Source: Candidatus Colwellbacteria bacterium CG10_big_fil_rev_8_21_14_0_10_42_22
Lineage (GTDB): Bacteria; Patescibacteriota; Minisyncoccia; UBA6257; Colwellbacteraceae
Assembly (NCBI GenBank): GCA_002773725.1
Contig: PFAH01000008.1
Location: 2,654 to 66,653 of the forward strand
DNA: 64,000 nt
Direction: 5' to 3'
Part shown: positions 7,879 through 61,624 of the stretch, in pieces
Numbering within the stretch: the first letter of the stretch is position 1
Layout of the letters: each line of letters opens with the position of its first letter
The notes under the pieces: model-generated
Told to the model about the DNA's origin: nothing
The model's database searches: none
Seen by the model: only the letters and a program-made list of their open reading frames with translations
Translations under genes and position numbers: made by a program

Positions 7879-8331
7879 ATGGATTATCTAACTAAGAAAA
7901 AATTAGCCGAACTTAAAGAAGAATTAGAAACCCTTAAAACAGAAGGGCGTAAATCTATTGCAGAGAATCTTAAGACGGCGAAAGAAATGGGCGATTTGTC
8001 TGAAAATGCAGAATATATTGAAGCTAGGGAACAGCAACAGAGAACTGAAAAGAAAATTTCCGAACTAGAACAGATGGTGCGTAATGCTGTTGTTATCGGT
8101 GTGCGCAAAAAACACGATGAGGTTGAAGTGGGCTCAACGGTTGCAGTTGAGCGTGATGGAGAGAAGTTCATTTTCCATATAGTTGGAAGCAATGAGGCAA
8201 AACCAGCAGAAGGATTCATCTCAAACGAATCTCCTTTAGGAGAAGCTCTTCTTGGACACAAAGAGGGGGAAGTTGTTGATTTTAAATCTCCTCGGGGGAA
8301 AGTTAAGTATAAGATTAATAAAATAGATTAA
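7879..8331 (+). CDS. greA: transcription elongation factor GreA
   Basis: The ATG at 7879 gives MDYLTKKKLAELKEELETLKTEGRKSIAENLKTAKEMGDLSENAEYIEARE, the GreA coiled-coil with the acidic tip. The C-terminal FKBP-like domain is present. The ORF track starts at a TTG at 7858. Confidence 0.9.
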   Translation: MDYLTKKKLAELKEELETLKTEGRKSIAENLKTAKEMGDLSENAEYIEAREQQQRTEKKISELEQMVRNAVVIGVRKKHDEVEVGSTVAVERDGEKFIFHIVGSNEAKPAEGFISNESPLGEALLGHKEGEVVDFKSPRGKVKYKINKID

Positions 8332-8355
8332 TTTTTTAGAGTTCTAAAAATAGAA

Positions 8356-8385
8356 TGACCCCCGTCGCTGTGGCGAAGGGGGTCA
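8356..8385. terminator. GC-rich hairpin GACCCCC-n14-GGGGGTC between convergent genes; T-run follows on the minus strand
   Basis: Read directly. On the minus strand the stem is followed by TCTATTTTTAG, so it probably terminates the 8948-to-8403 minus-strand cassette. It may also serve greA. Confidence 0.6.
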
Positions 8386-8402
8386 TTCGTCAGCGAAAGG
8401 GG

Positions 8403-8639
8403 TCAGGTGTTATCGAAGAGCAAGGGAAGGAATGTCATCATCGAGAGGATGGCCGTGACGATCCAGGCCAACACGCTCAAAATGTCGAGTGTCCTCCACG
8501 CCCAAGCATTCCAACCCCATTCTTCCGTTGTATTGGAAGCGAAGCCGGTGGCTAGGGCAAAGATGGCCACGCAGACCGCGATGAGAAGAAACTCCCACCA
8601 CGGATCAAACTCTTCCCTGTTCTTGCTAGACCAGGTCAA
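8403..8639 (-). CDS. hypothetical small membrane protein (78 aa, two hydrophobic helices) in a GC-rich insert
   Basis: ATG preceded by AAAGAGGTG. It lies 28 nt downstream of the 92-aa gene and is followed by the hairpin terminator at 8356-8385. Helices FLLIAVCVAIFALATGF and ILSVLAWIVTAILSMMTFLPLLF. Confidence 0.55.
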   Translation of the reverse strand: MTWSSKNREEFDPWWEFLLIAVCVAIFALATGFASNTTEEWGWNAWAWRTLDILSVLAWIVTAILSMMTFLPLLFDNT

Positions 8640-8669
8640 GGTGCACCTCTTTTTATCCGAGTGGTCTTA

Positions 8670-8948
8670 TCAAGAACGAATGGCGTAAGCCATGCCGTTC
8701 CGAATTTCCCAGCCATACTTCGTGTCCTTGCCGAAAGATGGCCAATGGATGATGTGCCCGTTGGGGTCGCGCCTGAAACGTCCCTTGAAACGCCCCCGAA
8801 TGGGTGTTGCCCCCTCCCACGCCTCATGAGCTTCGATGGTATGCGCGAAATCACCTCCCCCGAGCCTGCGGAGCATGTCTTTGAACTCTGGAGACACGCC
8901 CTTTCCTCTCCCGACGGGTTCTGCGCTGTTTCGTATGGTGTACGCCAC
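8670..8948 (-). CDS. hypothetical protein (92 aa) in a GC-rich insert
   Basis: GTG start preceded by GGGGAGG with a 6-nt spacer and a perfect TATAAT about 20 nt further up (plus coordinates 8967-8972, minus strand). GC is clearly higher than the flanks. Sequence MAYTIRNSAEPVGRGKG...GHIIHWPSFGKD; no family recognised. Confidence 0.55.
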   Translation of the reverse strand: MAYTIRNSAEPVGRGKGVSPEFKDMLRRLGGGDFAHTIEAHEAWEGATPIRGRFKGRFRRDPNGHIIHWPSFGKDTKYGWEIRNGMAYAIRS

Positions 8949-9048
8949 TTATCACCTCCCCGTGATATTATATGGGTAACATATCGAGTTTGGGGTTGTC
9001 CAGTTCTCGCTTTGGGGGAAGGATATGATATTCTAATAACTAGTCAGA

Positions 9049-10392
9049 ATGTTAAGTAGAATTCTCAAAGATAAATTCGGGAGATTAGAAAAGCTTAGAA
9101 AAGCTGGTGTTAATCCCTTTCCTGCAAGAGTTAAGAAGCATTTATCTATTAGTTCGGTATTAAAAGATTTTCCAAGCTTGAGTAAGCACCAAAGACCCAT
9201 CTATGTAGTGGGTAGGATTATATCTCGTCGAGATCAGGGAAAACTTTTGTTTATTGATTTATATGATGGAACAGACAAAATCCAAATTTTTGCAGCTAAA
9301 AAGGAATTGTCTAAATTTGATCTCTGGAAAGACACCCTAGACATAGGAGATTTTATAGGCGTAAAGGGAATTTGTTTCAAAACTAAAAAAGGTGAAAAGA
9401 GTATTCGCGCTAAGAGTTTAGATATACTTGCTAAGAGCTTGAGGCCCTTGCCGGATACATGGTTTGGCTTGAAGGATGTAGAAGAGCGCTTTCGTAAACG
9501 CTATTTAGACATGTTGATGAACTTGGAAGTTAAGGAGTCATTTGATAAGCGCTCTAAAATTGTTAGAGAAATGAGAGAGTTTCTTTGGAAAAACGACTTT
9601 ATAGAAGTAGAAACACCCATGCTCCAGCCAATTCCTGGCGGTGCCCTAGCGGAGCCCTTTAAAACGCACCACAACGCCCTCGGGCAAGATTTCTATTTAA
9701 GAATTGCTCCGGAGCTTTACTTGAAACGTTTACTTGTGGGTGGATTCAATAAAGTTTTTGAGATGGGAAGAATTTTTAGAAACGAGGGTATGGATAGGGA
9801 GCACAATCCTGAATTTACAATGCTTGAACTTTACTGGGCTTATCAGGATTACGAAGGGCTTATCAAGTTTACTGAAAAACTACTGAATAATGTTTTGGGT
9901 AAGAAGAAGTGGGAAAAAATTACTTATGCGGAGGCCTTTAAGAAATATGCTAAAAAGGATCTATCTAAGATAAAAGACAAGGCCTCCGTAGATGATGTTT
10001 TCAAAAGAGAGGTGCGCTCCAAGCTCATTAAGCCAACTATTTTGTGCGATCACCCGAAAGCGATTTCACCTTTGGCTAAATCTAAAATAGATAATCCTGA
10101 AATCACAGAGCGCTTTCAGTTCATCATAGGTGGAGTAGAGATAGCTAATGGATTTAGTGAACTTAATGATCCAATAGATCAAAAAGAAAGGATGGAATAT
10201 CAAGAATCTCTGTTTCGTAAGGGAAACAAAGAGGTAACCCGTATGGACAAAGATTTTTTGGAAGCCCTTGAATACGGTATGCCTCCAGCTGCTGGGTTGG
10301 GTGTTGGTATAGATCGTCTTGTGGTTATCGCGACAAATAGAGATTCGGTAAAGGAGTCGATTATATTCCCAACATTAAAAAGTAAAAAATAA
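9049..10392 (+). CDS. lysS: lysyl-tRNA synthetase (class II)
   Basis: 447 aa with an anticodon-binding OB fold N-terminus. Class II motifs include FRNEGMDREHNPEFTMLELY (motif 2) and GGVEIANGFSELNDP...GLGVGIDRLVV (motif 3). Confidence 0.95.
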   Translation: MLSRILKDKFGRLEKLRKAGVNPFPARVKKHLSISSVLKDFPSLSKHQRPIYVVGRIISRRDQGKLLFIDLYDGTDKIQIFAAKKELSKFDLWKDTLDIGDFIGVKGICFKTKKGEKSIRAKSLDILAKSLRPLPDTWFGLKDVEERFRKRYLDMLMNLEVKESFDKRSKIVREMREFLWKNDFIEVETPMLQPIPGGALAEPFKTHHNALGQDFYLRIAPELYLKRLLVGGFNKVFEMGRIFRNEGMDREHNPEFTMLELYWAYQDYEGLIKFTEKLLNNVLGKKKWEKITYAEAFKKYAKKDLSKIKDKASVDDVFKREVRSKLIKPTILCDHPKAISPLAKSKIDNPEITERFQFIIGGVEIANGFSELNDPIDQKERMEYQESLFRKGNKEVTRMDKDFLEALEYGMPPAAGLGVGIDRLVVIATNRDSVKESIIFPTLKSKK

Positions 10393-11613: not shown

Positions 11614-12313
11614 CCGCCTTCGGCGTATACTTCTTTTATTCACAACTCTGATTTTATTAGTCGGAGTGATCTACTTAATATGGTTCTCTCCTATTTTTGA
11701 AATTAAAGAAGTTGAGATTAGTGGAGAAGATTTAATTGCAAACCTCGATGTAGAAACAATTAAAGGGCAGAATATCTTTTTTTGGAAAATAGACCCAAAT
11801 ATTTTTGATGGCTCTCATCGAGTGGCAGAAGTAACGGTTGATAAAGAATTCCTTAAAAGAAAAGTGATTATAACTCTTCTTGCTAGACAAAAATATACAA
11901 TTTGGTGTTTTAACAAAGAAGATGTTTGTTATTGGGTAGATGAAAAAGGATTTATTTTTAGCGAAGCACCAAACTTGGAGGGCTCATTAAACTTGAGAAT
12001 CATAAAAGATTCATCCGAAAGGAAACTCTCGTTAGGGGATCAAGTTCTAGAGGATGAGCTTTTTAAAAACCTAGTTTTAGCCATAACGTTTATGGAGGAT
12101 TTGAATATTGAACAAGAAGAGATTGTTATAGGCGATCTGAAGTTTAAAGAAGCGGTGGCGAGAGTTAAAAGTGGACCAGATATTTATTTCAGCTTAATGC
12201 TTGATCCAAGCTTTGCCCAAAACGTAGTTAAATCTCTTCGCCAGAGCGGAGAGTGGAATGCCATAAATTACTTGGATTTAAGAGTTCCTAATCGAGCTTA
12301 CTACAACAACTAA
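11582..12313 (+). CDS. FtsQ/DivIB-like cell-division protein (N-terminal TM plus POTRA-like domain)
   Basis: 243 aa with a basic N-terminus. The TM helix ILLLFTTLILLVGVIYLIWF is followed by IKEVEISGEDLIANLDVETIKGQNIFFW, typical of the FtsQ POTRA region. The start overlaps the serS end by 32 nt. Confidence 0.5.
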   Translation: MSVRRRSRGGNRLRRILLLFTTLILLVGVIYLIWFSPIFEIKEVEISGEDLIANLDVETIKGQNIFFWKIDPNIFDGSHRVAEVTVDKEFLKRKVIITLLARQKYTIWCFNKEDVCYWVDEKGFIFSEAPNLEGSLNLRIIKDSSERKLSLGDQVLEDELFKNLVLAITFMEDLNIEQEEIVIGDLKFKEAVARVKSGPDIYFSLMLDPSFAQNVVKSLRQSGEWNAINYLDLRVPNRAYYNN

Positions 12314-14453: not shown

Positions 14454-14574
14454 AGATGATACTTATTAACATTGTGTTTGGTGCTCTGGACTGATACAAA
14501 GAGATTAGGAGTCGCAACTAAGAGGGGTTGCAACTTTTTTATTTGTACCTAGACGCAACTAGGAGGTTCAAACC

Positions 14575-14811
14575 GTGAGTAGCGTTGTCGACTACAAGAG
14601 TTGGGAGGATCAGGGTTCATTGCCTGCTTCTCAAATTCAGTCAGGCGACTCGATCAGTGGCCCCTATGGCAAGATCGTTGAATACACTGAGTGTATTCCC
14701 GGCGGCATTCCGAAGATTCGGATTACGTTCGAAGACGGCACACAACAACTCGTCGATAAGGGCCTTATGTTCCATGTTTGGAGACAGCCGTACAGGCGAG
14801 GCGATTGGTAA
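14575..14811 (+). CDS. hypothetical small protein (78 aa) in a GC-rich insert
   Basis: GTG start with AGGAGG 7 nt upstream. Followed by a long GC-rich hairpin plus TTTTT (14873-14938). Composition differs from the flanks. Confidence 0.5.
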   Translation: MSSVVDYKSWEDQGSLPASQIQSGDSISGPYGKIVEYTECIPGGIPKIRITFEDGTQQLVDKGLMFHVWRQPYRRGDW

Positions 14812-14872
14812 TGAATGGACTCGTGGATTTCGGCTCCCAAGAGGTGCGACCCTCAAAAACTTGCCCCGGCGC

Positions 14873-14938
14873 GCGAGAACCCCGACACGATATGTGTGTC
14901 AGGCAACTCGTGCATCATGCCGGGGTTCTCGCTTTTTC
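14873..14938 (+). terminator. intrinsic terminator (GCGAGAACCCCG ... CGGGGTTCTCGC TTTTT)
   Basis: 12-bp perfect stem read directly, with a structured ~36-nt loop containing GACAC/GTGTC, then a T5 run. Confidence 0.6.
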
Positions 14939-15014
14939 GAGTGAGAAAGCTTAGAATCTTCTTTGTAGACCCCCTATATAAAGGCAACTAGGGGGGATTT
15001 CTGCGTTTAACTCC

Positions 15015-17033
15015 ATGTTGAAACTGATATCAGAAAAAAAACCGGCGGGGGACCAACCCAAAGCCATAGATGCCCTGGTTAAAGGATTAAAAAAAGGTCT
15101 TAAGCACCAAACTCTTTTAGGCGTAACCGGTTCAGGTAAAACCTTCACTATCGCCAATGTTATAAACGAAGTGAAAAGACCAACCCTTGTTATCGCACAT
15201 AATAAAACTTTGGCTGCTCAGCTTTGTAATGAATTTAGAGAGCTGTTTCCCGAAAACCAAGTCCACTATTTTGTTTCATACTACGATTACTACCAACCAG
15301 AAGCATATCTTCCCAATACAAATACATATATAGCCAAAGAGGCGCATACAAATGACGAGATAGACCGCCTACGTCACGCTGCCACCACGGCTCTTTTGAC
15401 TCAAAAAGATGTAATTATTGTGGCATCCGTCTCGGCCATTTATGGCCTCGGCACGCCGGAGCTTTATAGAGAAAACATTCTTCACTTTAAAATAGGCGAT
15501 CAGATATCCCGCGAAGAATTGGCGAGGCGTTTAATCAGGGTACAGTTCACGCGTACCAACGCCAACCTTAATCGAGGTTCTTTTCGTTTGCGAGGAGATA
15601 ACTGGGAGATAATGTCTCCTCACGACGACGTTGTTTACAACTTCGTTATGGATAAAGGCAAGATATCAAAGATATATATAGTAGATCCGACTATCGGCTT
15701 CAGTTACGAAAAGACGCCAAGCACGGACGAAGTTTATATATCACCCGTTAAACACTACATTACTTTAGATAGTCAGATAGAGGTAGCTCTTAAAAATATC
15801 GAACAAGAAATGAAGGAAAGAATCAAATATTTTGAAAAAGAAGGCAAACTTTTGGAAGCAGAGATTATAGAACGTCGCACCAAGGGCGATATGGCGATGA
15901 TTCGGGAAGTGGGATATTGCAATGGCATTGAGAATTATTCAAGACATTTAGATGGCAGAGCTCCGGGTGAGCCCCCCGCCACTTTACTTGATTACTTTCC
16001 CGAGGATTTCTTGCTGGTTATAGATGAGTCGCACGTAACGGTGCCACAAATCAGAGGTATGTTTGAGGGAGATGCTTCTAGAAAAAGGACTTTGATAGAA
16101 CATGGTTTTCGCCTCCCGTCAGCTTCTGATAACCGCCCCCTTAAATTTGGTGAATTCGAAAAAAGAGTAGGACAAACAATATACACATCGGCTACGCCGA
16201 GTGTCTATGAGGCAGAACACAGTCAAAAAACGGTTGAGCAGGTTATTAGACCCACTGGTCTAGTTGATCCAATCATCACTATCCGTCCGGCTAAGGGTCA
16301 GATAGACGATCTTATACCTCGCATCAAAGAGCGGATAGAAAAAAGCGAGAGGGTGCTTGTAACGACTTTGACAAAGAAGATGGCAGAGGACCTAAACGAC
16401 TATTTACACGACTTAGGTTTAAAAGTTAATTATTTACACAGCGACGTTGAAACATTGGATAGGATTAGAATTCTGACGGGTCTTAGGAGAGGCGACTTTG
16501 ATGTTTTAGTTGGAGTAAACCTGCTTAGGGAAGGATTAGATTTGCCAGAAGTATCTTTAGTGGCAATCCTAGATGCTGACAAAGAGGGATTCTTACGTAG
16601 CGAAACAGCGCTTATCCAGACAATTGGTCGGGCGGCCAGAAACGTAAACGGGGAAGTACTGATTTATGCAGACCAAATAACTGGTTCGGTAAAAAGGGCT
16701 GTTAGCGAAACAGAGAGGAGAAGAAAGATCCAAATAGCTTATAACAAAAAGCATGGCATTACTCCCCAAACAATTGTTAGAAACATTCAAGATATTTTAC
16801 CAATTGAGAACCGCGAAAGAGAGGCAAAAATAGGTGAAATACTTGAACTTGAGGTAGGTGCGTTACCCAAAACAACCAAGCGTATTGAAGAGATGATTAG
16901 AGACAAAGAACGAGAAATGAAGGAAGTAGCTAAAAAACTGGATTTTGAGTTGGCAGCTATCTTAAGAGATGAGCTGGTGATCCTTAAAGAAAAAATGAGT
17001 CATAAGAACAAAAAGAAACATGGCTCCGCCTAA
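15015..17033 (+). CDS. uvrB: excinuclease ABC subunit B
   Basis: 672 aa; Walker A GVTGSGKTF, helicase motifs, the beta-hairpin region and the C-terminal UVR coiled-coil ELAAILRDELVILKEKM. Confidence 0.95.
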   Translation: MLKLISEKKPAGDQPKAIDALVKGLKKGLKHQTLLGVTGSGKTFTIANVINEVKRPTLVIAHNKTLAAQLCNEFRELFPENQVHYFVSYYDYYQPEAYLPNTNTYIAKEAHTNDEIDRLRHAATTALLTQKDVIIVASVSAIYGLGTPELYRENILHFKIGDQISREELARRLIRVQFTRTNANLNRGSFRLRGDNWEIMSPHDDVVYNFVMDKGKISKIYIVDPTIGFSYEKTPSTDEVYISPVKHYITLDSQIEVALKNIEQEMKERIKYFEKEGKLLEAEIIERRTKGDMAMIREVGYCNGIENYSRHLDGRAPGEPPATLLDYFPEDFLLVIDESHVTVPQIRGMFEGDASRKRTLIEHGFRLPSASDNRPLKFGEFEKRVGQTIYTSATPSVYEAEHSQKTVEQVIRPTGLVDPIITIRPAKGQIDDLIPRIKERIEKSERVLVTTLTKKMAEDLNDYLHDLGLKVNYLHSDVETLDRIRILTGLRRGDFDVLVGVNLLREGLDLPEVSLVAILDADKEGFLRSETALIQTIGRAARNVNGEVLIYADQITGSVKRAVSETERRRKIQIAYNKKHGITPQTIVRNIQDILPIENREREAKIGEILELEVGALPKTTKRIEEMIRDKEREMKEVAKKLDFELAAILRDELVILKEKMSHKNKKKHGSA

Positions 17034-22842: not shown

Positions 22843-23299
22843 AAAGAATATTGAAGGACAAATAGGATTTCCAGGTATAGAAGAAGAGGAGACAAAAGAA
22901 CAGATTGAAAAAAGAAAAATAGGGGCAAAAAGAAGAAGCGAATTAATCGGTACGAGAATTTTCCCATTTGGGGAAGTTAATGAAGGCGGAGCACAAGCAT
23001 TACAAGACGGTTATATAGTAACCACAGAGGTGAGACGATGGGGTGGAAAACTTCTTGATAGTGTCGAAGACCAGTTGACCAGGGTTACTGGTAAGGAAAG
23101 AGGTCCTATGCCTCCGGACGAAAGTAGTTGGCCCAATGTTATACCCGAAACAAGAAAATTCAATTTGGACAGAATAGTGGATGAAAGACGTCGGTCTTTA
23201 ATCAAAAAGTATGTTGAAGAAGGCGATATAGAGAGGGCAGGAGATTTAAAAAGAAAAAGAAGAGAGGGTAGAGCCAAACAAGAGAAAAGAAGGTCTTGA
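22835..23299 (+). CDS. hypothetical highly charged protein
   Basis: 154 aa with an 8-nt overlap with the upstream gene. Lys/Arg/Glu-rich tail. No family recognised. Confidence 0.45.
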   Translation: MPRKNIEGQIGFPGIEEEETKEQIEKRKIGAKRRSELIGTRIFPFGEVNEGGAQALQDGYIVTTEVRRWGGKLLDSVEDQLTRVTGKERGPMPPDESSWPNVIPETRKFNLDRIVDERRRSLIKKYVEEGDIERAGDLKRKRREGRAKQEKRRS

Positions 23300-23350
23300 T
23301 TTGACGTTTTTCCTATAATACGATGTCTCCACGCTAGGTAAGGAGATACG

Positions 23351-23881
23351 TTGACATATCAAGTTCTGGAGAAAGGGCCTTGGCTCTTCAGAGTGGCGGA
23401 TGACGGCTCGCACGCTTGGGGTATCTACGCCGGCATCGTCCGGTTTTACTTGCTCCCCCAGCCAGGTCGGCTCCATGCCGATTGGAGTCGTCGGAAAACC
23501 ATGAAGGGTTATCCGGGTTTTGTTCCGGATGAGCACTTCTGGCCCTATTTGCAGGAAATCAACAAGTTGATGCTGGATAGACGGAAGCGAATTCCGTTCT
23601 CGCCTGGTCGGCGGGACTTTGCGAATCGTCGCAAGGTTTCCATGGAATTTTCGAATGGCAGAGTGGACTTCTTCATCCATCCCATGGGTGAGGATTGCTG
23701 GGTTCACATCTACTCCGGAGAGAGGGTGGAAGCGGTCCTTCTCTTCACTCGAGGGATTATGGGCGAAGTAGAACGCGACCTTTCCAAGTCCTCTGGCCAC
23801 ACATCGGAAAATATGGAGACCTACGTCCGGCTTTCCGCCGATCAATTGATGCATTGGCAAGCCAGCTTCGCTCATAGTTGA
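23351..23881 (+). CDS. hypothetical protein (176 aa) in a GC-rich insert
   Basis: TTG start with AAGGAG 6 nt upstream. TTGATT/TTGACG and TATAAT elements lie just upstream (23297-23325). A hairpin terminator sits at 23905-23945. Composition differs from the flanks. The antisense 209-aa ORF is judged spurious. Confidence 0.5.
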   Translation: MTYQVLEKGPWLFRVADDGSHAWGIYAGIVRFYLLPQPGRLHADWSRRKTMKGYPGFVPDEHFWPYLQEINKLMLDRRKRIPFSPGRRDFANRRKVSMEFSNGRVDFFIHPMGEDCWVHIYSGERVEAVLLFTRGIMGEVERDLSKSSGHTSENMETYVRLSADQLMHWQASFAHS

Positions 23882-52497: not shown

Positions 52498-53408
52498 TGT
52501 TTACCAACATTTACCGACTTTTAAAATATTCTTTTCAGAGCTTTTGGAGGCAGAAACTTCTGTCGGTTGCAACTATGGCAGTCATGCTCTTAGTGCTTTT
52601 TGTTTTTCAGGGAATATTCATATTCGGAGCAATAGGGGATAATGCCCTCGAATCGATTAAGGGCAAGATAGATGTTAGTTTGTTTTTCCAAGTGGATGCA
52701 CCGGAGGACGAGATTTTGGCTGTTAAAAATGAGGTTGAAAAACTAGATGTAGTTAAGGGGGTTGAATATATTTCACGAGAAGAGGCATTAAAGCTTTTTA
52801 GAGAAAGGCATCGGAAAGACGAAACGGTGACCCAAGCATTAGATGAGTTGGACGACAATCCACTTTCTGCTTCTTTAAACATTAAAACCCATGAAACGGA
52901 TCAATTACCCGTAGTGGCTGCTTATCTTAACAACATTGTTTCGGAATCTTTGGTGGATGAAGTAAGTTACAATGAAGACAATAAAGCAGTTATAGATCGT
53001 CTGACAGCCATCATTACGGTCAGCGAGATAGCCGGAGTAATTTTGGCACTCTTCTTGGCTATCGTTGCCATCCTAGTTGCCTTCAATACAGTTCTTTTGG
53101 GTATTTATTCAAATCGTGACGAAATATCAATCATGCGTTTAGTGGGCGCTTCAAACATATTTATTAGGGGACCATTTATAGGGTTGGGTGTGATATACGG
53201 ATTTATAACAGCTACGATTGTGATGCTTTTGAGTATTCCGGTGGTCTATGCGATGGCACCGAATGTTATCCCATTTGTACCGGATTTTGATTTGGTTAAC
53301 TGGTTCAATAGTGGATTTATCGGACTCTATTTATTGCAAATAGGTATTAGTGTATCTATTGGAGTAGTTTCCAGTATGATTGCTATCAATCGTTATTTAG
53401 AGGCCTAA
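52497..53408 (+). CDS. ftsX: cell-division ABC transporter permease FtsX
   Basis: 303 aa; an N-terminal TM, an extracellular domain, then three C-terminal TMs. Immediately downstream of ftsE with an ATGA overlap. Confidence 0.85.
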   Translation: MFTNIYRLLKYSFQSFWRQKLLSVATMAVMLLVLFVFQGIFIFGAIGDNALESIKGKIDVSLFFQVDAPEDEILAVKNEVEKLDVVKGVEYISREEALKLFRERHRKDETVTQALDELDDNPLSASLNIKTHETDQLPVVAAYLNNIVSESLVDEVSYNEDNKAVIDRLTAIITVSEIAGVILALFLAIVAILVAFNTVLLGIYSNRDEISIMRLVGASNIFIRGPFIGLGVIYGFITATIVMLLSIPVVYAMAPNVIPFVPDFDLVNWFNSGFIGLYLLQIGISVSIGVVSSMIAINRYLEA

Positions 53409-53502
53409 AATATTTAGAAATTTTTCTCCTGTGGATTTTTGAACCCTTCTCTTTTGGTGTCGTGTTAGAATGTAAATAAAGGTCAAATTAATTTAACAAA
53501 AC

Positions 53503-53760
53503 ATGAAATTAAATCCTAAAGCTTTCGGTTTAGCGTGTGGTTCTATCTGGGGAGCATTAATGGCTTTAATGACAATAATCAATCTCATACCAATGTTTGG
53601 CGGATACGCAGGCGAAATGTTGCTTGTTTTTGCCGGTATTTACCCCGGATACACCATAAGTTGGTTTGGTGTTTTGATTGGGGCGATTTACGGTTTCATA
53701 GACGCCTTTATAGGTGGATGGTTGTTTGTCTGGGTCTATAACAAATTTGATAAGGAATAA
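53503..53760 (+). CDS. hypothetical small membrane protein
   Basis: 85 aa; three glycine-rich hydrophobic helices. A TTGAAC-18-TGTTAGAAT promoter-like element lies upstream at about 53440-53472. Confidence 0.45.
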   Translation: MKLNPKAFGLACGSIWGALMALMTIINLIPMFGGYAGEMLLVFAGIYPGYTISWFGVLIGAIYGFIDAFIGGWLFVWVYNKFDKE

Positions 53761-54114: not shown

Positions 54115-54189
54115 ATCTTTTCATACTTTTTTGATGTGGCCTTTATTAAATCTTCTTTATATTAATGACGAAAATAGGGGATGGGTCTT

Positions 54190-54250
54190 AAAAACAGAAA
54201 CGCCCACCAAAGATAGCGAGCAGAATCTGCTCACGTCCCCAGTGGGCGCG
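54190..54250 (-). terminator. intrinsic terminator for the minus-strand small-gene operon (CGCCCAC...GTGGGCG with inner GAGCAG/CTGCTC; U-run on the minus strand)
   Basis: Read directly: plus strand AAAAACAGAAACGCCCACCAAAGATAGCGAGCAGAATCTGCTCACGTCCCCAGTGGGCG. On the minus-strand transcript the stem is followed by UUUCUGUUUUU. Confidence 0.6.
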
Positions 54251-54263
54251 TGATGAGGTGTTC

Positions 54264-54605
54264 CTAGTTTTCGTCCTCATCTTCAGCTTCAGAGAACCAC
54301 TTCTCGTTTTCGGGGGGCGCAATTCGCACCTCGACGACGTAGGAGCCCCCACAATCGTCGAGTTCCTGTCCACAGAACGGACAGATGTACTCGAGCAATC
54401 CATTGACCCGAAGATCCCCTCCTGGTGCTCTGCCCCCCGCATTGCATTCCCATTCCGTAGAAGAGTCAGCAATGGATGCACCGATTGCCTTGAAGTGTTC
54501 CTCGACAATCTCAATACAGGCACAGACATCCGGATCGATGAGGTCTGCCGAGCATTCGAATTTTTCGAAAGCCCTGCCAACGAAGTCCAAGTCGATGGGT
54601 TTCAT
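54264..54605 (-). CDS. hypothetical acidic protein with Cys pairs (zinc-ribbon-like), GC-rich island gene 5
   Basis: 113 aa; CSADLIDPDVCAC...EWECNAGG...ICPFCGQELDDCGG and the tail EAEDEDEN. AGAAGGGA lies upstream of the ATG. Last gene before the terminator. Confidence 0.5.
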   Translation of the reverse strand: MKPIDLDFVGRAFEKFECSADLIDPDVCACIEIVEEHFKAIGASIADSSTEWECNAGGRAPGGDLRVNGLLEYICPFCGQELDDCGGSYVVEVRIAPPENEKWFSEAEDEDEN

Positions 54606-54620
54606 ACTTCTTGTTCCCTT

Positions 54621-54989
54621 CTACGCAATCCAAAGACCGTGCAGACCGGATAGTTCACGCCTGAACACTCCGCCCCTCTTCTCCACATGCTCGCGAAACA
54701 TACGAAAAACGTTGTCCACGTTCTCCGCGTCGTACCACCCATCGTATAGACCATCATCATCGAGGGCGATGTAAATGAGTCCTTTTGGTTGGAGAGAAGC
54801 ATCGTGCTGGGAAATGACCTCCTCACGTTCTTCGTCCCAGAGAAGAATGTGACCCATGTTGGGCAGAAACCCCACTCTTTTCCCGAGGATTCTTGGATGG
54901 GATTTCTCCAAGTTGGCCAATGCCGTTCCGCCGGGGTGGTGTCCCTCTGTCCATCCATACCTCGCCCTATAGAGCCAAAGCGTTTCCAT
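54621..54989 (-). CDS. hypothetical protein, GC-rich island gene 4
   Basis: 122 aa; AAGGGG 5 nt before the ATG, and 11 nt after the stop of gene 3. The alternative frame 54602..54994 looks compositionally like noise. Confidence 0.45.
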   Translation of the reverse strand: METLWLYRARYGWTEGHHPGGTALANLEKSHPRILGKRVGFLPNMGHILLWDEEREEVISQHDASLQPKGLIYIALDDDGLYDGWYDAENVDNVFRMFREHVEKRGGVFRRELSGLHGLWIA

Positions 54990-55000
54990 ATCAACCCCTT

Positions 55001-55339
55001 CTAGGTACCGATGGTGTGAATACCGCGTTGCCCCGGATACTCTGGGGCCTCGACGATGGTTCGTGTCCTCACATACGCGTCGTAGTTGTCTTCATAAACC
55101 CAACCCAGGATTATTCCATTCAGGTTGTTGTCTTCGAAGAAAACTCGAATCTTATGACCAACATGTGGCCATGCTCCGGTGTGGTAGTTGAAGTGCTCAC
55201 CCTCCATCCATGAAAGAAGCCCTCCATTGGAAAGATCGAATTGGTGAATCTGGTAAGATTCGTTCAAACGAACTTCTCCCACCATATTCGTGACATCGAC
55301 CTCGATAACCACACCAGCATGCCAATCGCGATATGTCAT
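55001..55339 (-). CDS. hypothetical protein, GC-rich island gene 3
   Basis: 112 aa from the ATG at 55339 (MTYRDWHAGVVIEV...). The ATG overlaps the stop of gene 2 in an ATGA motif, indicating translational coupling. Confidence 0.45.
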   Translation of the reverse strand: MTYRDWHAGVVIEVDVTNMVGEVRLNESYQIHQFDLSNGGLLSWMEGEHFNYHTGAWPHVGHKIRVFFEDNNLNGIILGWVYEDNYDAYVRTRTIVEAPEYPGQRGIHTIGT

Positions 55340-55500
55340 GATCTGTGTCCTCCGGTTGTTATGAAGCGACGAAATCTCGGATTGTGGCGGTTGTCCCTGC
55401 ACTCAAGTCGAGCGGGCGCAACTCGCATCTTCTTGTCTTCACGATGCAGAAGTTTGGGAGAGCCCAACGCTTGTGCAACATGTCTCCAGAAATCGTTCAT
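55336..55500 (-). CDS. hypothetical small basic protein, GC-rich island gene 2
   Basis: 54 aa from the ATG at 55500, with GAGGAAG 7 nt upstream. The ORF track extends to a GTG at 55548, which has no ribosome-binding site. Arg/His-rich. Confidence 0.4.
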   Translation of the reverse strand: MNDFWRHVAQALGSPKLLHREDKKMRVAPARLECRDNRHNPRFRRFITTGGHRS

Positions 55501-55609
55501 AGTTCTCTTCCTCAGTTGTGAAAGAGCGAAGCCCTTTCTTTTCCCCACGGGGCTTATAGGTCTTGAATATGCAATATTTATAAGAGTCAGTCAACTTCGT
55601 TAGAGTTAA

Positions 55610-55625
55610 GCTATCTCAAGATAGC
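55610..55625. promoter_or_regulatory. near-perfect palindrome GCTATCT-CA-AGATAGC in the intergenic region upstream of the gene 2-5 operon
   Basis: Read directly. A TTGACT box (minus strand, plus coordinates 55589-55594) lies next to it. Candidate operator. Confidence 0.4.
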
Positions 55626-55746
55626 CATCGGATGCCAAAGGGCACTTTATCTCTAACGGGGTCAATTTTAATACACCCAAAAATGCATGAACCCCACCTT
55701 TGTGAAATCGGGCGGGATTCACGCAGATGGGGTTGTTGGGCTCGCT

Positions 55747-55983
55747 TTAGACGCGCCCTCGGATTCTGGGAAAAGAGAAGCATCGGTCGTGCTGATGGCA
55801 CCTCTCGGCGCTGTTGTAGATAGAAAGGCGAATTTCGCAGCCCTTCTCCGCGCAAATGCGTCCCGTGGGATACACCTTGTGTTTGCGGTTGCTTCCGCCG
55901 ATTCTTCTCGCAATTGTCGGATTGCGACGCGTAGTCGCTCCTCCAAAATTGCCTCCCACTCCCTCGTTCTCAAAGAGCGGCAT
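55747..55983 (-). CDS. hypothetical zinc-finger-like small protein, GC-rich island gene 1
   Basis: 78 aa; GGGAGG with a 6-nt spacer before the ATG. Cys/His pattern CAEKGC-x12-CHQHDRC. It is the first gene downstream of the divergent promoter region. Confidence 0.5.
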   Translation of the reverse strand: MPLFENEGVGGNFGGATTRRNPTIARRIGGSNRKHKVYPTGRICAEKGCEIRLSIYNSAERCHQHDRCFSFPRIRGRV

Positions 55984-56009
55984 CTTTTTCCTCCCTATCC
56001 CGATGCCTT

Positions 56010-56126
56010 AGACCCCTAAAATACAATTTTTAATTATTAAAAGTCAATATTCGTATTTGACTAGCGAAATAAATTGTGGCAATTTCTATATGTACATTGA
56101 AGTCTAAGTTGAAGGGAGCGTTCATC
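56010..56126. promoter_or_regulatory. divergent control region between the minus-strand and plus-strand small-gene operons
   Basis: AT-rich, with AGTCAA (56042-56047) and TTGACT (56057-56062) forming an inverted pair of -35-like boxes 9 nt apart (AGTCAA-ATATTCGTATT-TGACT). Genes with good ribosome-binding sites start on both sides. Confidence 0.45.
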
Positions 56127-56405
56127 GTGCAAGACATTCCCGAAAACGTGGAACTCGGAAGTCAGCTCTATTGGGAGTATCGACTTCGCAACGAACTGAA
56201 CTCCAGATGGAATCGTGTTGCCAATCATCTCGTGGCTTTGAAGAAGCGGATGTATGAACAGAGATGTGATGACGGATGCATTCTCGGGATTTGGCACTGG
56301 CTTGTGAATCAGTGGGGAGAGTCCCTTCTGAGAAGGCGTAATGCCTGCGAGGAACGCATTCGCATTTTGGAGCACCAGATTTGGATTAAAGGAGAACGAG
56401 AATGA
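56127..56405 (+). CDS. hypothetical protein, GC-rich island plus-strand gene 1
   Basis: 93 aa from the GTG at 56127, with AAGGGAG 8 nt upstream. The ORF track ATG at 56076 lacks a ribosome-binding site. The stop overlaps the next ATG (ATGA). Confidence 0.4.
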   Translation: MQDIPENVELGSQLYWEYRLRNELNSRWNRVANHLVALKKRMYEQRCDDGCILGIWHWLVNQWGESLLRRRNACEERIRILEHQIWIKGERE

Positions 56406-56650
56406 ATGGTATGAGCATCATTCAGCGCATTGACACCGCCTTCATCCTTATAGCAAGCGTTGTCGGGTTTGTAGTTGGCGTTGTTGCGGGTTTGCTTACT
56501 GGTCTTTGTGTCCTTGTCGGCGTTGTTTTCGGTTTTGATTGGCTCCTAGAAATCAATCCGAGATATTTGGTTGCCGTTTCGGTCTTTGTTGTTTGCCTGA
56601 CGGTAATCGTGCTGGCGAGGATTCGATTGAAGAAAGAAATGCTTCTGTGA
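56402..56650 (+). CDS. hypothetical small membrane protein, GC-rich island plus-strand gene 2
   Basis: 82 aa; AAGGAG 7 nt upstream; hydrophobic stretches FILIASVVGFVVGVVAGLLTGLCVLVGVVFGF and YLVAVSVFVVCLTVIVLA. Confidence 0.5.
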   Translation: MNGMSIIQRIDTAFILIASVVGFVVGVVAGLLTGLCVLVGVVFGFDWLLEINPRYLVAVSVFVVCLTVIVLARIRLKKEMLL

Positions 56651-56886
56651 TGGAAAATCCTTCCGAGCGAACGGCGTTGGCTGTCGTCATCGGTATCGCT
56701 GTCACACTGGTGTTGGTCTGGTTTGCCTTCCGTGTGGGAGACCCCCAGTGGTTCATTCTCATCCTCGCTTTTCCTATCGGTGTCGTCTCCTTCCTCGCTC
56801 TCGTTTTCAGCTTGGTGTGCTGTCTTCAGAAGGGGATTTGCACAGCGATCATCGAAGACAAGCGCCGGCAAAAGCCGGACAGGTAA
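56650..56886 (+). CDS. hypothetical small membrane protein, GC-rich island plus-strand gene 3
   Basis: 78 aa from the ATG at 56650, overlapping the previous stop (TGATG). Two TM helices and a CC pair. The terminator follows immediately. Confidence 0.45.
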   Translation: MENPSERTALAVVIGIAVTLVLVWFAFRVGDPQWFILILAFPIGVVSFLALVFSLVCCLQKGICTAIIEDKRRQKPDR

Positions 56887-56887
56887 T

Positions 56888-56946
56888 ACCCGCACATCGA
56901 GACGCAAAACTCGCGCGTCTTAGGGGGAGATGTGCGGGTTTTGTGC
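56888..56946 (+). terminator. intrinsic terminator (ACCCGCACATC ... GATGTGCGGGT TTTGTGCTTC) with an inner palindrome GAGACGC/GCGTCT
   Basis: Read directly; an 11-bp outer stem followed by a T-rich tract. Confidence 0.65.
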
Positions 56947-56971
56947 TTCTTGGGTGTATGATTAGAGCAGT

Positions 56972-58064: not shown

Positions 58065-58583
58065 CTAGCAGACGGGTATGGGGGCAATCAATCGCCCACG
58101 CGACCGCCTGCAGTCGGCGATGTCCCAGACCTCCACGAGATCCAGATCGCCGTTCCCTCCGTCGCCGTGCTCGAACGAGCGGTGTTCCAGCTCCGGAACC
58201 TCTTCGATTGCTCTTGAGCAACAGACGCTCGCGAACACGGAAGGCATCATGAGATCAGCGATCTCATGATCGCGGAGGCGGAGGAGCAGATCCTCCAAGT
58301 CCGAGACCGCTTCGTCCCAGGCGGTCTCTTCGCACCAGACCGGCGCGAATCCAAATCGGCGATCGTACCGGTGCGGACGGTACTCATAGAGCACCGTCAC
58401 GCCATCAGGCGGGATGCAGGGCATGGTGCCCTTTTCCACCCACGGCTCGCACTCGCGGAAAATCACTTCCCCCCCGTTACGCAGGGGAGCGATGACTTTC
58501 CGACCTCGCTGGGTCGGTTCGATGATGGCAAACCACTCACCATCATCACCTTGAAATGCTTCAAAGATCGTTCCCCCAAACAT
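58065..58583 (-). CDS. hypothetical protein (172 aa), GC-rich
   Basis: ATG at 58583 with AAGGAGGG 4 nt upstream. A TTGACA-17-TACAAA promoter lies on the minus strand (plus coordinates 58622-58650). The terminator is downstream. No family recognised. Confidence 0.5.
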   Translation of the reverse strand: MFGGTIFEAFQGDDGEWFAIIEPTQRGRKVIAPLRNGGEVIFRECEPWVEKGTMPCIPPDGVTVLYEYRPHRYDRRFGFAPVWCEETAWDEAVSDLEDLLLRLRDHEIADLMMPSVFASVCCSRAIEEVPELEHRSFEHGDGGNGDLDLVEVWDIADCRRSRGRLIAPIPVC

Positions 58584-58644
58584 GGTCCCTCCTTCTTGTC
58601 GCTTCAAGGACCGTTGCGGTGTTTGTACCATAAAACAGAATAAA

Positions 58645-58803: not shown

Positions 58804-59210
58804 GCAGGGAGGCAATTTAGATAGCAGCTTTGTGGACTCTACACAGTCGAGATAGTGATTGTTCTTTACATCAGGAGTCCGCAAAGAGGAAAGTCCGGAC
58901 ACTCCTCCGACTTAGGTCGGAGAGCAGGGTAGCGGGTAATACCCGTCGTTCGAAAGAATAGAGGTGCGAGCAGTGACGCTCTGTTTAGAAATATGCAGAG
59001 AGGCCCGATCCCAACGTAGATGGTCTAATCCCGCCATAGGGGCAAAAAGCGGGAGTGAAACGGCTAAATCCTTACCTGAGTGCAAGGCCGTGCTCCGACT
59101 TCGGTCGGAGAGAGCCGCACGAGCTTGAGAGTAATCGATGGCCTAGATAGATTGCTATCATCCGACCACGCGTCGGATTACAGAATCCGGCTTATTAATT
59201 GCCTCCCTGC
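58804..59210 (+). ncRNA. rnpB: RNase P RNA (bacterial type A)
   Basis: P1 pairing GCAGGGAGGCAATT (5-prime) with AATTGCCTCCCTGC (3-prime). P4 strands AGGAAAGTCCGGACACTCC and ACAGAATCCGGCTTAT. Conserved AGGGTAGCGGGTAATACCCG, GGGCAAAAAGCGGGAGTGAAACGGC and TGAGTGCAAGGCCGTGCTCCGACTTCGGTCGGAG modules. Confidence 0.85.
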
Positions 59211-60880: not shown

Positions 60881-61417
60881 ATGCTAAAGAAATTGCCCAA
60901 CTGGTTGGGCTACGCGAGAATGGTCCTGACCCCTGTGGTTATGGGCTTCATCTACTACGGTGACAACGAATTCTGGACGGGGTTCGTTTTCGCCATCGTT
61001 GTGGCGACAGATGGCCTTGATGGCCCCATCGCCCGAGCAACACATTCGACCAGCCAATTTGGCATCATGTTGGACACGCTGGCAGACAAGTTCTTGATTG
61101 CCGGTTGTGTCCTCGCGTTGGTAGCCAAGGACCCAGTTTGGCTTTGGGCGGGATTCATCATCATCGACCGTGATTTCTTGGTGATGACGCTGAAGGCAAA
61201 CGTAGGCGGGGGCTTCATCAAGGCATCCAACTTGGGAAAGATCAAGATGGGCCTTCAATCGGTGGCTATCTACCTGGTCATCAATCCTTGGCCTTTCAAT
61301 GGTGCCACCGGCTGGAACTCTCCTGGTGGGGCGGTGATGGCGTTGGCTCTTTGGTTCACCCTCTTCTCGGCTTGGGACTACTACCACAAGTACACCCGTT
61401 TCTTGCGGTGGAATTAA
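60881..61417 (+). CDS. pgsA: CDP-alcohol phosphatidyltransferase (phosphatidylglycerophosphate synthase-like)
   Basis: 178 aa; D-G-x2-A-R ... G-x3-D-x3-D signature in ATDGLDGPIARATHSTSQFGIMLDTLADKF. GC is clearly higher than the neighbouring genes. Confidence 0.75.
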   Translation: MLKKLPNWLGYARMVLTPVVMGFIYYGDNEFWTGFVFAIVVATDGLDGPIARATHSTSQFGIMLDTLADKFLIAGCVLALVAKDPVWLWAGFIIIDRDFLVMTLKANVGGGFIKASNLGKIKMGLQSVAIYLVINPWPFNGATGWNSPGGAVMALALWFTLFSAWDYYHKYTRFLRWN

Positions 61418-61550: not shown

Positions 61551-61624
61551 TGCCGGATCGTCTAGTGGTAGGACGTCTGTTTCTGGAACAGAAAACCGGG
61601 GTTCGAGTCCCTGTCCGGCAGCCA
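61551..61624 (+). tRNA. tRNA-Gln (anticodon CTG), CCA encoded
   Basis: Hand-folded: acceptor TGCCGGA/TCCGGCA (U1-A72); anticodon stem TCTGT/ACAGA with loop TTCTGGA; T arm CGGGG-TTCGAGT-CCCTG; discriminator G then CCA. Confidence 0.8.

Follow-up and report, generated by a model that had tools for sequence, protein, structure and literature searches.

The 64-kb window analyzed here (the whole stretch of DNA under study, 64,000 nucleotides of the Candidatus Colwellbacteria contig PFAH01000008.1) contains, at positions 54190-56946, a GC-rich block of small orphan genes, hereafter the islet, which we interpret, with a probability of roughly 0.55, as an anciently imported, now resident accessory orphan islet of a narrow Colwellbacteria lineage, consisting of three independent units. 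An initial annotation, made from the sequence alone, had placed eight open reading frames (ORFs) in this block, and all eight are present in the ORF listing: the zinc-finger gene p78; p93, p82, and p78b; and p54, p112, p122, and p113. Five of these (p78, p93, p82, p112, and p122) are, as judged from sequence comparison, real genes under purifying selection, because their orthologs in a sister species show ratios of nonsynonymous to synonymous divergence (dN/dS) of 0.09-0.39, with the third codon position being the least conserved. In GenBank, the islet genes carry the label 'hypothetical protein' (COT89_02420, COT89_02425); the entry so labeled whose sequence is exactly that of p122 is assigned to 'Candidatus Colwellbacteria bacterium CG10_big_fil_rev_8_...'.

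The abrupt, GC-rich composition ascribed to the block is borne out by windowed GC content, GC content at third codon positions (GC3), and codon usage. The window, in which most housekeeping genes lie on the plus strand, averages 41.8% GC, and the genome of the host, an ultra-small groundwater bacterium of the candidate phyla radiation (CPR), has a GC content of 40-42%, compared with ~0.50 for 54190-56946; the profile reaches 0.48-0.55 across 54.2-57.0 kb, with flanks of 0.37-0.42. In the annotated frames, the GC3 of the islet is 0.50-0.69, vs. 0.30-0.42 for host genes. The relative synonymous codon usage (RSCU) of the islet correlates with that of its counterpart in the sister species (r=0.62) and with that of the other GC-rich patches of the window (r=0.43), but not with that of host genes (r=-0.07), whereas sets of host genes correlate with one another at r=0.79-0.90. 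The islet DNA was found with identical junctions in independent assemblies from ENA, JGI, and Logan (eight contigs) and thus is not an assembly chimera; all eight contigs are identical to one another, with no within-population polymorphism among them. On its upstream side, the islet is flanked by prfB, ftsE, ftsX, mem85 (encoding an 85-aa membrane protein), and a rhodanese gene, and on the downstream side, by an ORF for a 65-aa membrane protein, followed by the NUDIX and TspO genes.

Because the islet is GC-rich, it contains few stop codons, which leaves almost all of the six frames with ORFs of 100-160 aa, so that ORF length alone is weak evidence for the genes. The stronger evidence comes from a sister Colwellbacteria genome (GCA_043819735.1; L021, the same genome as L009), in which FtsX and FtsE are 82% and 91% identical, respectively, to those of the window. 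This genome contains a GC-rich block of ~3 kb (0.50-0.55; flanks, 0.38-0.40) between metK and the MFS-rhodanese-mem85-ftsX genes, which encodes orthologs of p122 (dN/dS 0.09), p78 (48% identity; dN/dS 0.22), p112 (dN/dS 0.26), p93 (58-60% identity; dN/dS 0.29; ATG start at the aligned position), and p82 (47-48% identity; dN/dS 0.39; glycine-zipper-like stretch conserved). The synonymous divergence (dS) of these orthologs is ~1-2.5, a range near saturation in which the estimates are unreliable. Shadow ORFs in alternative frames are much less conserved than the annotated ones (37% vs. 69% for p122). At third codon positions, identity between the two genomes is 0.38-0.58 for the islet genes, compared with 0.43-0.46 for the flanking ftsX and ftsE.

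The organization of the two blocks is only partly the same. In both, the p112 operon is oriented with its 3' end toward the rhodanese side. However, p78 of L021 is located on the opposite flank of the p93 unit, the p112 operon of L021 includes genes for 63- and 101-aa proteins where the window has p113, and the slot of p78b, which has no ortholog in L021, is occupied by a different small hydrophobic ORF (~36 aa). Since p78 is relocated in L021 and occurs alone in a further relative (L012), and p113 is replaced in L021, the islet is neither one genetic unit nor a single system. The block shows presence/absence variation at this locus: it is found in the window species and in L021/L009, and is missing from the syntenic ftsX-rhodanese loci of more distant Colwellbacteria (L011, L012, L013, and L018), which encode no islet protein other than the lone p78-like gene of L012. 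In addition, the p112 operon was detected in a third version, with 88% DNA identity to that of L021, at positions 1-686 of L023 (ENA ERZ27293400 k141_405977), a contig from the metagenome that also yielded the contig of the window. There are thus at least three islet-bearing lineages, two of which co-occur.

From these observations, we infer a single ancient acquisition. DNA from a GC-richer pool, probably that of Patescibacteria phages or other mobile DNA, would have entered the ancestor from which the two sister species descend, and would then have been kept under purifying selection while being reshuffled, with p78 moved and with p113 or the genes for the 63- and 101-aa proteins, as well as the third membrane gene, swapped. 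The proposal that the block is mobile cargo rather than housekeeping DNA holds insofar as the islet is accessory and compositionally foreign, and the p78 family occurs in phage contigs. It does not hold in the sense of a free-moving cassette, because the core genes occupy the same neighborhood in the same orientation in the sister species, show a divergence similar to that of the host genes on either side, and are under purifying selection.

The islet had been described as two divergent, translationally coupled operons. The coupling overlaps are real, namely, ATGA at p54/p112 and p93/p82 and TGATG at p82/p78b, and the p112/p122 and p122/p113 pairs are close but nonoverlapping, with gaps of 11 and 15 nt. 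However, as predicted from sequence features, there are three transcription units rather than two, p78, p93-p82-p78b, and p54-p112-p122-p113 (Table 1), because p78 has its own intrinsic terminator, making it monocistronic, and the p54-to-p113 genes have a separate promoter. A Shine-Dalgarno motif, attributed previously to every ORF, precedes seven of the eight, with none recognizable at p78b. The strong intrinsic terminators proposed for both ends of the block were recovered, each followed by a U-run; the one of the p93 unit aligns over 52 nt, at 85% identity, with L021 1130-1180, located likewise at the 3' end of the p93 unit of that genome.

Table 1. ORFs and regulatory elements of the islet, with positions in the window
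Feature	Position	Strand	Description
p78	55747..55983	-	78 aa, basic, isoelectric point (pI) 10.5; Cys3His knuckle R-x-C-A-x3-C-x3-LSxYN-x4-C-x2-H
p93	56127..56405	+	92 aa, soluble, Trp-rich; GTG start
p82	56402..56650	+	82-aa membrane protein; glycine-zipper-like GFxVGxxAGLLxGL, GFDWLL motif, basic C-terminus
p78b	56650..56886	+	78-aa membrane protein, two hydrophobic segments, charged C-terminus; TGATG overlap with p82; no Shine-Dalgarno
p54	55336..55500	-	54 aa, very basic, pI 11.6; in leader; ATGA overlap with p112 start
p112	55001..55339	-	112 aa, acidic, pI 5.2; predicted to be rich in beta strands
p122	54621..54989	-	122 aa, acidic (pI 5.8), soluble; most conserved islet gene
p113	54264..54605	-	113 aa, very acidic, pI 4.1, 7 Cys including CPFC knuckle, acidic tail; Shine-Dalgarno AAGGGA, ATG start
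Intrinsic terminator of p54-p112-p122-p113 unit	54189..54249	-	nested hairpin, then UUUCUGUUUUU; fold -34.4 kcal/mol; terminator scan
Intrinsic terminator of p93 unit	56885..56955	+	14-nt arms and U-run; inverted repeat I6; fold -39.1 kcal/mol
Intrinsic terminator of p78	~55675..55725	-	GC-rich hairpin, then AUUUUUG; minus-strand fold of 55595-55746
Promoter of p54-to-p113 unit	55594-55566	-	TTGACT, 17 nt, CATATT; promoter scan and L021 alignment
5' leader hairpin	55520..55538	-	GAAAGGGC-UUC-GCUCUUUC, then ACAACUGA; conserved in L021
Compound inverted repeat	55598..55658	.	CGTTAGAG...CTCTAACG around palindrome GCTATCTCAAGATAGC (55610-55625); repeat search (I15) and fold; upstream of -35 box
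Back-to-back divergent promoter region	56018..56062	.	promoter scan (minus strand); -35 boxes

Between the two islets, DNA conservation is highest in the terminator of the p93 unit and in the p112-unit promoter with the adjoining ~60 nt at the start of the transcript. At the p54-to-p113 promoter, the 17-nt sequence AAATATTGCATATTCAA is identical in the sister species, and the best-conserved noncoding block, which holds the leader hairpin, is 79.5% identical over 83 nt to L021 2181-2262; the 3' arm of the hairpin in L021 is a GCC variant (GCYCUUUC covers both). The hairpin pattern had no match in metagenome or viral scans, and no Rfam covariance model matched anywhere inside 54190-56946 at E values up to 1. 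The palindrome GCTATCT-CA-AGATAGC, taken previously as a sign of autoregulation, is present upstream of this promoter, but the operator idea is unsupported, since L021 lacks GCTATCTCAAGATAGC in the corresponding promoter region and keeps only the promoter core and the leader hairpin there. An inverted pair of -35 boxes lies between p78 and p93, as had been noticed, although AGTCAA (56042-47) and TTGACT (56057-62) are separated by a spacer of 9 nt, not 11. The promoter scan assigns TTGACT-18-TATTTT on the minus strand (56047-56018) to p78, and TTGACT at 56057-56062 is the -35 box of the p93 unit, for which the scan found no plus-strand -10 box; a similar pair, AGTCAA-N14-TTGACG, is located upstream of the p93 ortholog in L021.

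The initial annotation could not name a family for any of the eight proteins, and Pfam, PHROGs, PADLOC, NCBIfam, and fold searches indeed found none, with one qualification: p78 has a weak match to PHROG 10853, as do all three Colwellbacteria members of the p78 family (E 3.9e-4 to 4.2e-3). The Cys/His motif attributed to p78 is of the zinc-knuckle type, but its correct spacing is C-x4-C-x12-C-H-x-H-x2-C. Among 5.8 billion proteins, p78 retrieved only itself. Relatives were identified on eight IMG/VR viral contigs, with tblastn E values of 2e-7 to 6e-5 that were computed against the candidate set only; identity to the viral ORFs is 39-44% over 43-51 residues and up to 61% over shorter stretches, and the motif is also found in Streptomyces phage Faust gp74. 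The viral genes are encoded beside lysis genes, divergently from a gene for a large-terminase-like protein, or among DNA-metabolism genes, and because of this variation, no specific role of p78 can be deduced from context; from its sequence, the protein would most likely be a nucleic-acid-binding regulator. The lone p78-like gene of L012 (Colwellbacteria GWA2_46_10; 11965-12243, minus strand) directly follows mem85, is GC-rich for its genome, encodes the motif C-x4-C-x3-LSQYN-x4-C-x2-H, and has no other islet gene alongside. We also considered a CHORD domain for p78, given that RAR1 was the best PDB match (E=0.76), and rejected it: the first half of the domain signature, C-x4-C-x12-C-x2-H, is present, whereas the second half, F-H...W-x-C-C, is absent.

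In the p93 unit, p93 has no detectable family in the profile libraries and no relative in the viral contigs, and the matches of p82 are limited to insignificant ones, to FtsX and holin models. The codon-usage frame test places the annotated frame of p78b ahead (0.247). The three proteins most likely form a small envelope-associated complex, as suggested by their sequence features. In the p54-to-p113 unit, p122 has a single homolog among the 5.8 billion proteins (P0002, 68% identity), encoded on the L021 contig, and no match in metagenome scans; matches to designed PPR repeats in the PDB sequence search were rejected, as no single stretch was significant. An exhaustive HMMER search with p112 against 1.84 billion cluster representatives recovered p112 itself, the sister-species ortholog (48% identity), and two repeat proteins (P0005 and P0006), which were rejected as repeat-inflated noise. 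The two proteins, p112 and p122, are not paralogs of each other, and no paralogs of islet proteins were found elsewhere in the window. The last gene, p113, has no relative but itself among the 5.8 billion proteins and is absent from the L021 islet; its annotated frame is barely ahead of the antisense frame (0.295 vs. 0.27), and it is probably a real gene, albeit unproven. The counterpart of p54 in L021, assigned by position, is a 70-aa ORF whose Shine-Dalgarno motif and GTG start follow directly on the conserved hairpin and which has an identical ATGA overlap. The two are poorly conserved, with indels of 26 and 30 nt, and have in common only the C-terminal motif RLExRxxR..P..R..TGGHxS; the frame test favors p54 weakly, and its status as a gene appears uncertain. 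As far as can be predicted, p112, p122, and p113 most likely bind other macromolecules rather than act as enzymes.

The islet is the largest local example of a clade-wide habit and not a unique module, because GC-rich orphan patches recur in the window and in the relatives. The window contains at least six GC-rich patches, and those other than an RNase P RNA and a phosphatidyltransferase gene encode orphan ORFs. The patches at 8321-9060, 14481-15080, and 23246-23875 (GC 0.50-0.53) lie between low-GC housekeeping genes and contain orphan ORFs without a Pfam family. At 8.4-8.9 kb, these are a membrane ORF of 78 aa, with two hydrophobic segments, and an ORF of 92 aa; at 14.6 kb, one of 78 or 119 aa; and at 23.2-23.9 kb, one of 209 aa. 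The pooled codon usage of these patches correlates with that of the islet, not the host. Between TspO and the RNase P RNA, positions 58065-58631 (minus strand; GC 0.60, GC3 0.69) encode a 188-aa acidic, Cys-rich orphan with no Pfam, PHROG, or PADLOC match, in a further patch of foreign composition. The patch at 58843-59206 (plus strand) is explained by a bacterial type A RNase P RNA that covers the full model (1-367) with 64 bits (E 3e-18), a score below the Rfam gathering score of 100, and that the default scan missed. At 60881-61417 (plus strand), adjoining tRNA-Gln (61551-61624), a CDP-alcohol phosphatidyltransferase gene (Pfam E 5e-28) with a GC3 of 0.72, vs. ~0.37 for the genome, likely was horizontally transferred. 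Among the relatives, a GC-rich insert of 570-720 bp occupies the ftsX-mem85 spacer in five cases (L009/L021, L010, L011, L012, and L013; for example, L013 10903-11549 and L021 5560-6277), whereas this spacer is only 95 bp long in the window (53408-53503). The orphan ORFs of these inserts are mostly unrelated, with only L011 and L012 having an 80-aa protein in common (44% identity), and the spacer looks like a recurrent insertion or turnover hotspot. Near the same neighborhood, L018 carries a different kind of GC-rich insert, a 2-kb block (0.55-0.58) encoding a 570-aa Thr/Ser/Ala-rich repetitive protein (14460-16172, plus strand) that is probably located at the cell surface.

Several observations weigh against an ancient import that has since become resident. 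No integrase or transposase gene was detected in or beside the islet, with the nearest tRNA genes being 3.4 kb and 4.6 kb away, and no flanking direct or att-like repeats are longer than expected by chance; because these hallmarks of mobility are missing, the case for import is made from composition and distribution only. Furthermore, GC3 and codon usage are non-host in both lineages, although synonymous sites would have largely turned over if the islet was inherited vertically since the two species split; by rough reasoning, neutral decay to the AT-rich equilibrium of the host should have erased most of the GC3 difference, so that its persistence points to selection on composition, continuing exchange, or independent acquisitions, which are not separable with the two islet genomes compared. 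Three of the ORFs (p113, p78b, and p54) are without comparative support, the AlphaFold2 model of p112 is unusable (pLDDT 42), and the structure model of p122 is only moderately confident. All functional roles proposed for the islet are inferred.

The persistence of a non-host composition could be accommodated if the two islets were independent recent acquisitions from related GC-richer mobile elements, for instance temperate phages or integrative elements of Patescibacteria, with a preference for this neighborhood, that is, decayed moron-like remnants of two mosaic relatives, a scenario that we regard as unlikely. The non-host GC3 and codon usage in both species, although the orthologs differ at most synonymous sites, are consistent with it, as are the mosaic differences (the side of p78, the 63- and 101-aa genes for p113, and the different third membrane ORF), the occurrence of the p78 family on viral contigs, and the location of the islet at a synteny breakpoint, with metK as the flank in L021 vs. 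NUDIX/TspO in the window. However, the insertion points differ, with a host-like MFS gene between the L021 islet and the rhodanese gene; neither islet contains phage structural genes or integrase or att remnants; p93, p112, p122, and p113 have no relatives in 2.9 million viral contigs, and blastn searches of the islet against phage and plasmid collections yielded no match; and the divergence of the islet genes is in line with that of the flanking host genes. The contrary possibility, that these are native, fast-evolving, clade-specific genes in which GC-rich codons are kept by selection (on mRNA structure or stability, or through an expression regime), with the other patches explained likewise, seems rather unlikely to us. 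From one species to another, the orphan ORFs of a given spacer mostly show no relationship, which looks like turnover by insertion rather than descent; highly expressed host genes of the window do not follow the codon regime of the islet; one GC-rich patch is an ordinary CDP-alcohol phosphatidyltransferase gene with the GC3 typical of a transferred gene; and phages share the p78 family. These points stand against the persistence of non-host codon usage in both species despite saturated synonymous divergence, the conserved position and orientation, and the recurrence of GC-rich orphan ORFs between conserved genes in many Colwellbacteria, as in the ftsX-mem85 spacer, as well as in at least six patches of the window, all of which a native origin would account for.

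The initial annotation likened the block to defense, toxin-immunity, or addiction modules, a suggestion left unsupported by the searches: PADLOC defense profiles matched none of nine proteins at E values up to 0.1, the Pfam, NCBIfam, and PADLOC searches revealed no toxin or antitoxin domains, and neither in these libraries nor in PHROGs was there a defense or significant holin match. A functional cassette of this kind (with p54 as antitoxin and p112 as toxin, or with membrane abortive-infection effectors under p78) is distinctly improbable, despite the small, tightly packed genes, the ATGA overlap of the basic 54-aa and the 112-aa ORFs, the membrane proteins with a glycine-zipper-like motif and charged C-termini, a shape known in holins and membrane toxins, the dedicated promoters and terminators, and a fitting accessory distribution, given that p54 is barely conserved and lacks a recognizable DNA-binding fold, the proposed operator palindrome is not conserved, the islet is single-copy, stably syntenic, and found in no other context, and no genetic linkage of p78 with the p112 operon is kept from species to species. 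A noncoding islet, consisting of a structured RNA or junk DNA in which ORFs are open only because stops are rare, is very improbable indeed. Nearly every frame of the islet does contain long ORFs, and another GC-rich patch of the window, at 58843-59206, does encode an RNA; but the Rfam search of the islet was empty, the five conserved ORFs show codon-position-specific divergence, and both the weak conservation of shadow ORFs and the frame test favor the annotated frames. Only p54 and, with lower likelihood, p113 and p78b might still be noncoding. Finally, a bolder and rather doubtful reading would hold that the conserved core of the islet (the promoter with its leader hairpin, the basic leader peptide, p112, p122, and p93-p82) is an undescribed functional system specific to Patescibacteria, either for anti-defense or immunity-like inhibition of proteins or as an episymbiotic envelope module, with its codon regime upheld by exchange with an unsampled GC-richer element or by selection; in that event, the GC-rich patches would be traces of a second, hidden pool of genes within Colwellbacteria genomes.

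CPR bacteria (Patescibacteria) have small genomes, in which selection for the loss of unneeded DNA is believed to be strong. Orphan genes that survive in them may thus contribute to biology particular to the lineage, for example, to symbiosis, interaction with phages, or functions of the envelope, and the islet supplies five such genes under selection, together with a conserved promoter and leader that are directly testable. GC-rich orphan patches with a common non-host codon usage recur across this genome and its relatives, and this codon usage is undecayed in both sister species. If true, such an undecayed codon regime is relevant to the ways in which streamlined symbionts acquire foreign genes and retain them. 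On present evidence, the islet remains an ordinary island of hypothetical proteins, of which the persistent second codon regime is the only feature worth following up.

Comparison with known systems locates the islet among several that it resembles in part. As in type II toxin-antitoxin modules, a small basic ORF overlaps an ORF of ~110 aa by ATGA and is served by its own promoter; unlike in such modules, neither a toxin nor an antitoxin domain was found, conservation of the upstream ORF is poor, two more genes follow, p54 has no recognizable DNA-binding fold, and no conserved palindromic operator was found. In size, hydrophobic segments, and basic C-termini, p82 and p78b are similar to holins, but no endolysin gene is located nearby and the sole match to a holin model had an E value of 0.36. 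The possible relationship of p78 to PHROG 10853 (Faust gp74 and 54-aa ORFs from IMG/VR) is based on the R-x-C-A-x3-C-x3-LSxYN-x4-C-x2-H/C knuckle following a basic stretch, whereas the N-terminal ATTRxxPTI segment is Colwellbacteria-specific, the matches are weak, and the family has no assigned function. Compared with phage morons and prophage remnants, no phage gene lies within or adjacent to the islet (the neighbors being the rhodanese, NUDIX, TspO, and FtsEX genes), integrase and att sites are missing, and neither PHROGs nor the 2.9 million viral contigs contain a relative for seven of the eight ORFs; shared with them are units with their own promoter and terminator, the GC contrast, small orphans including membrane proteins, and p78. 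In aquifer Patescibacteria, genomic islands are reported to be common, numbering in the hundreds, amounting to up to 13% of genome length, and being mostly exchanged among Patescibacteria (PMC12455944). The islet differs from these islands in being only 2.75 kb long, in lacking mobility genes, in being syntenic in the sister species under purifying selection, and in having kept its non-host codon usage through saturating synonymous divergence, but it shares with them an atypical composition, a patchy distribution, mostly hypothetical genes, and a streamlined CPR host genome (PMC12455944). The islet is new in its protein families, whereas its kind, CPR islets of hypothetical genes, is already known.

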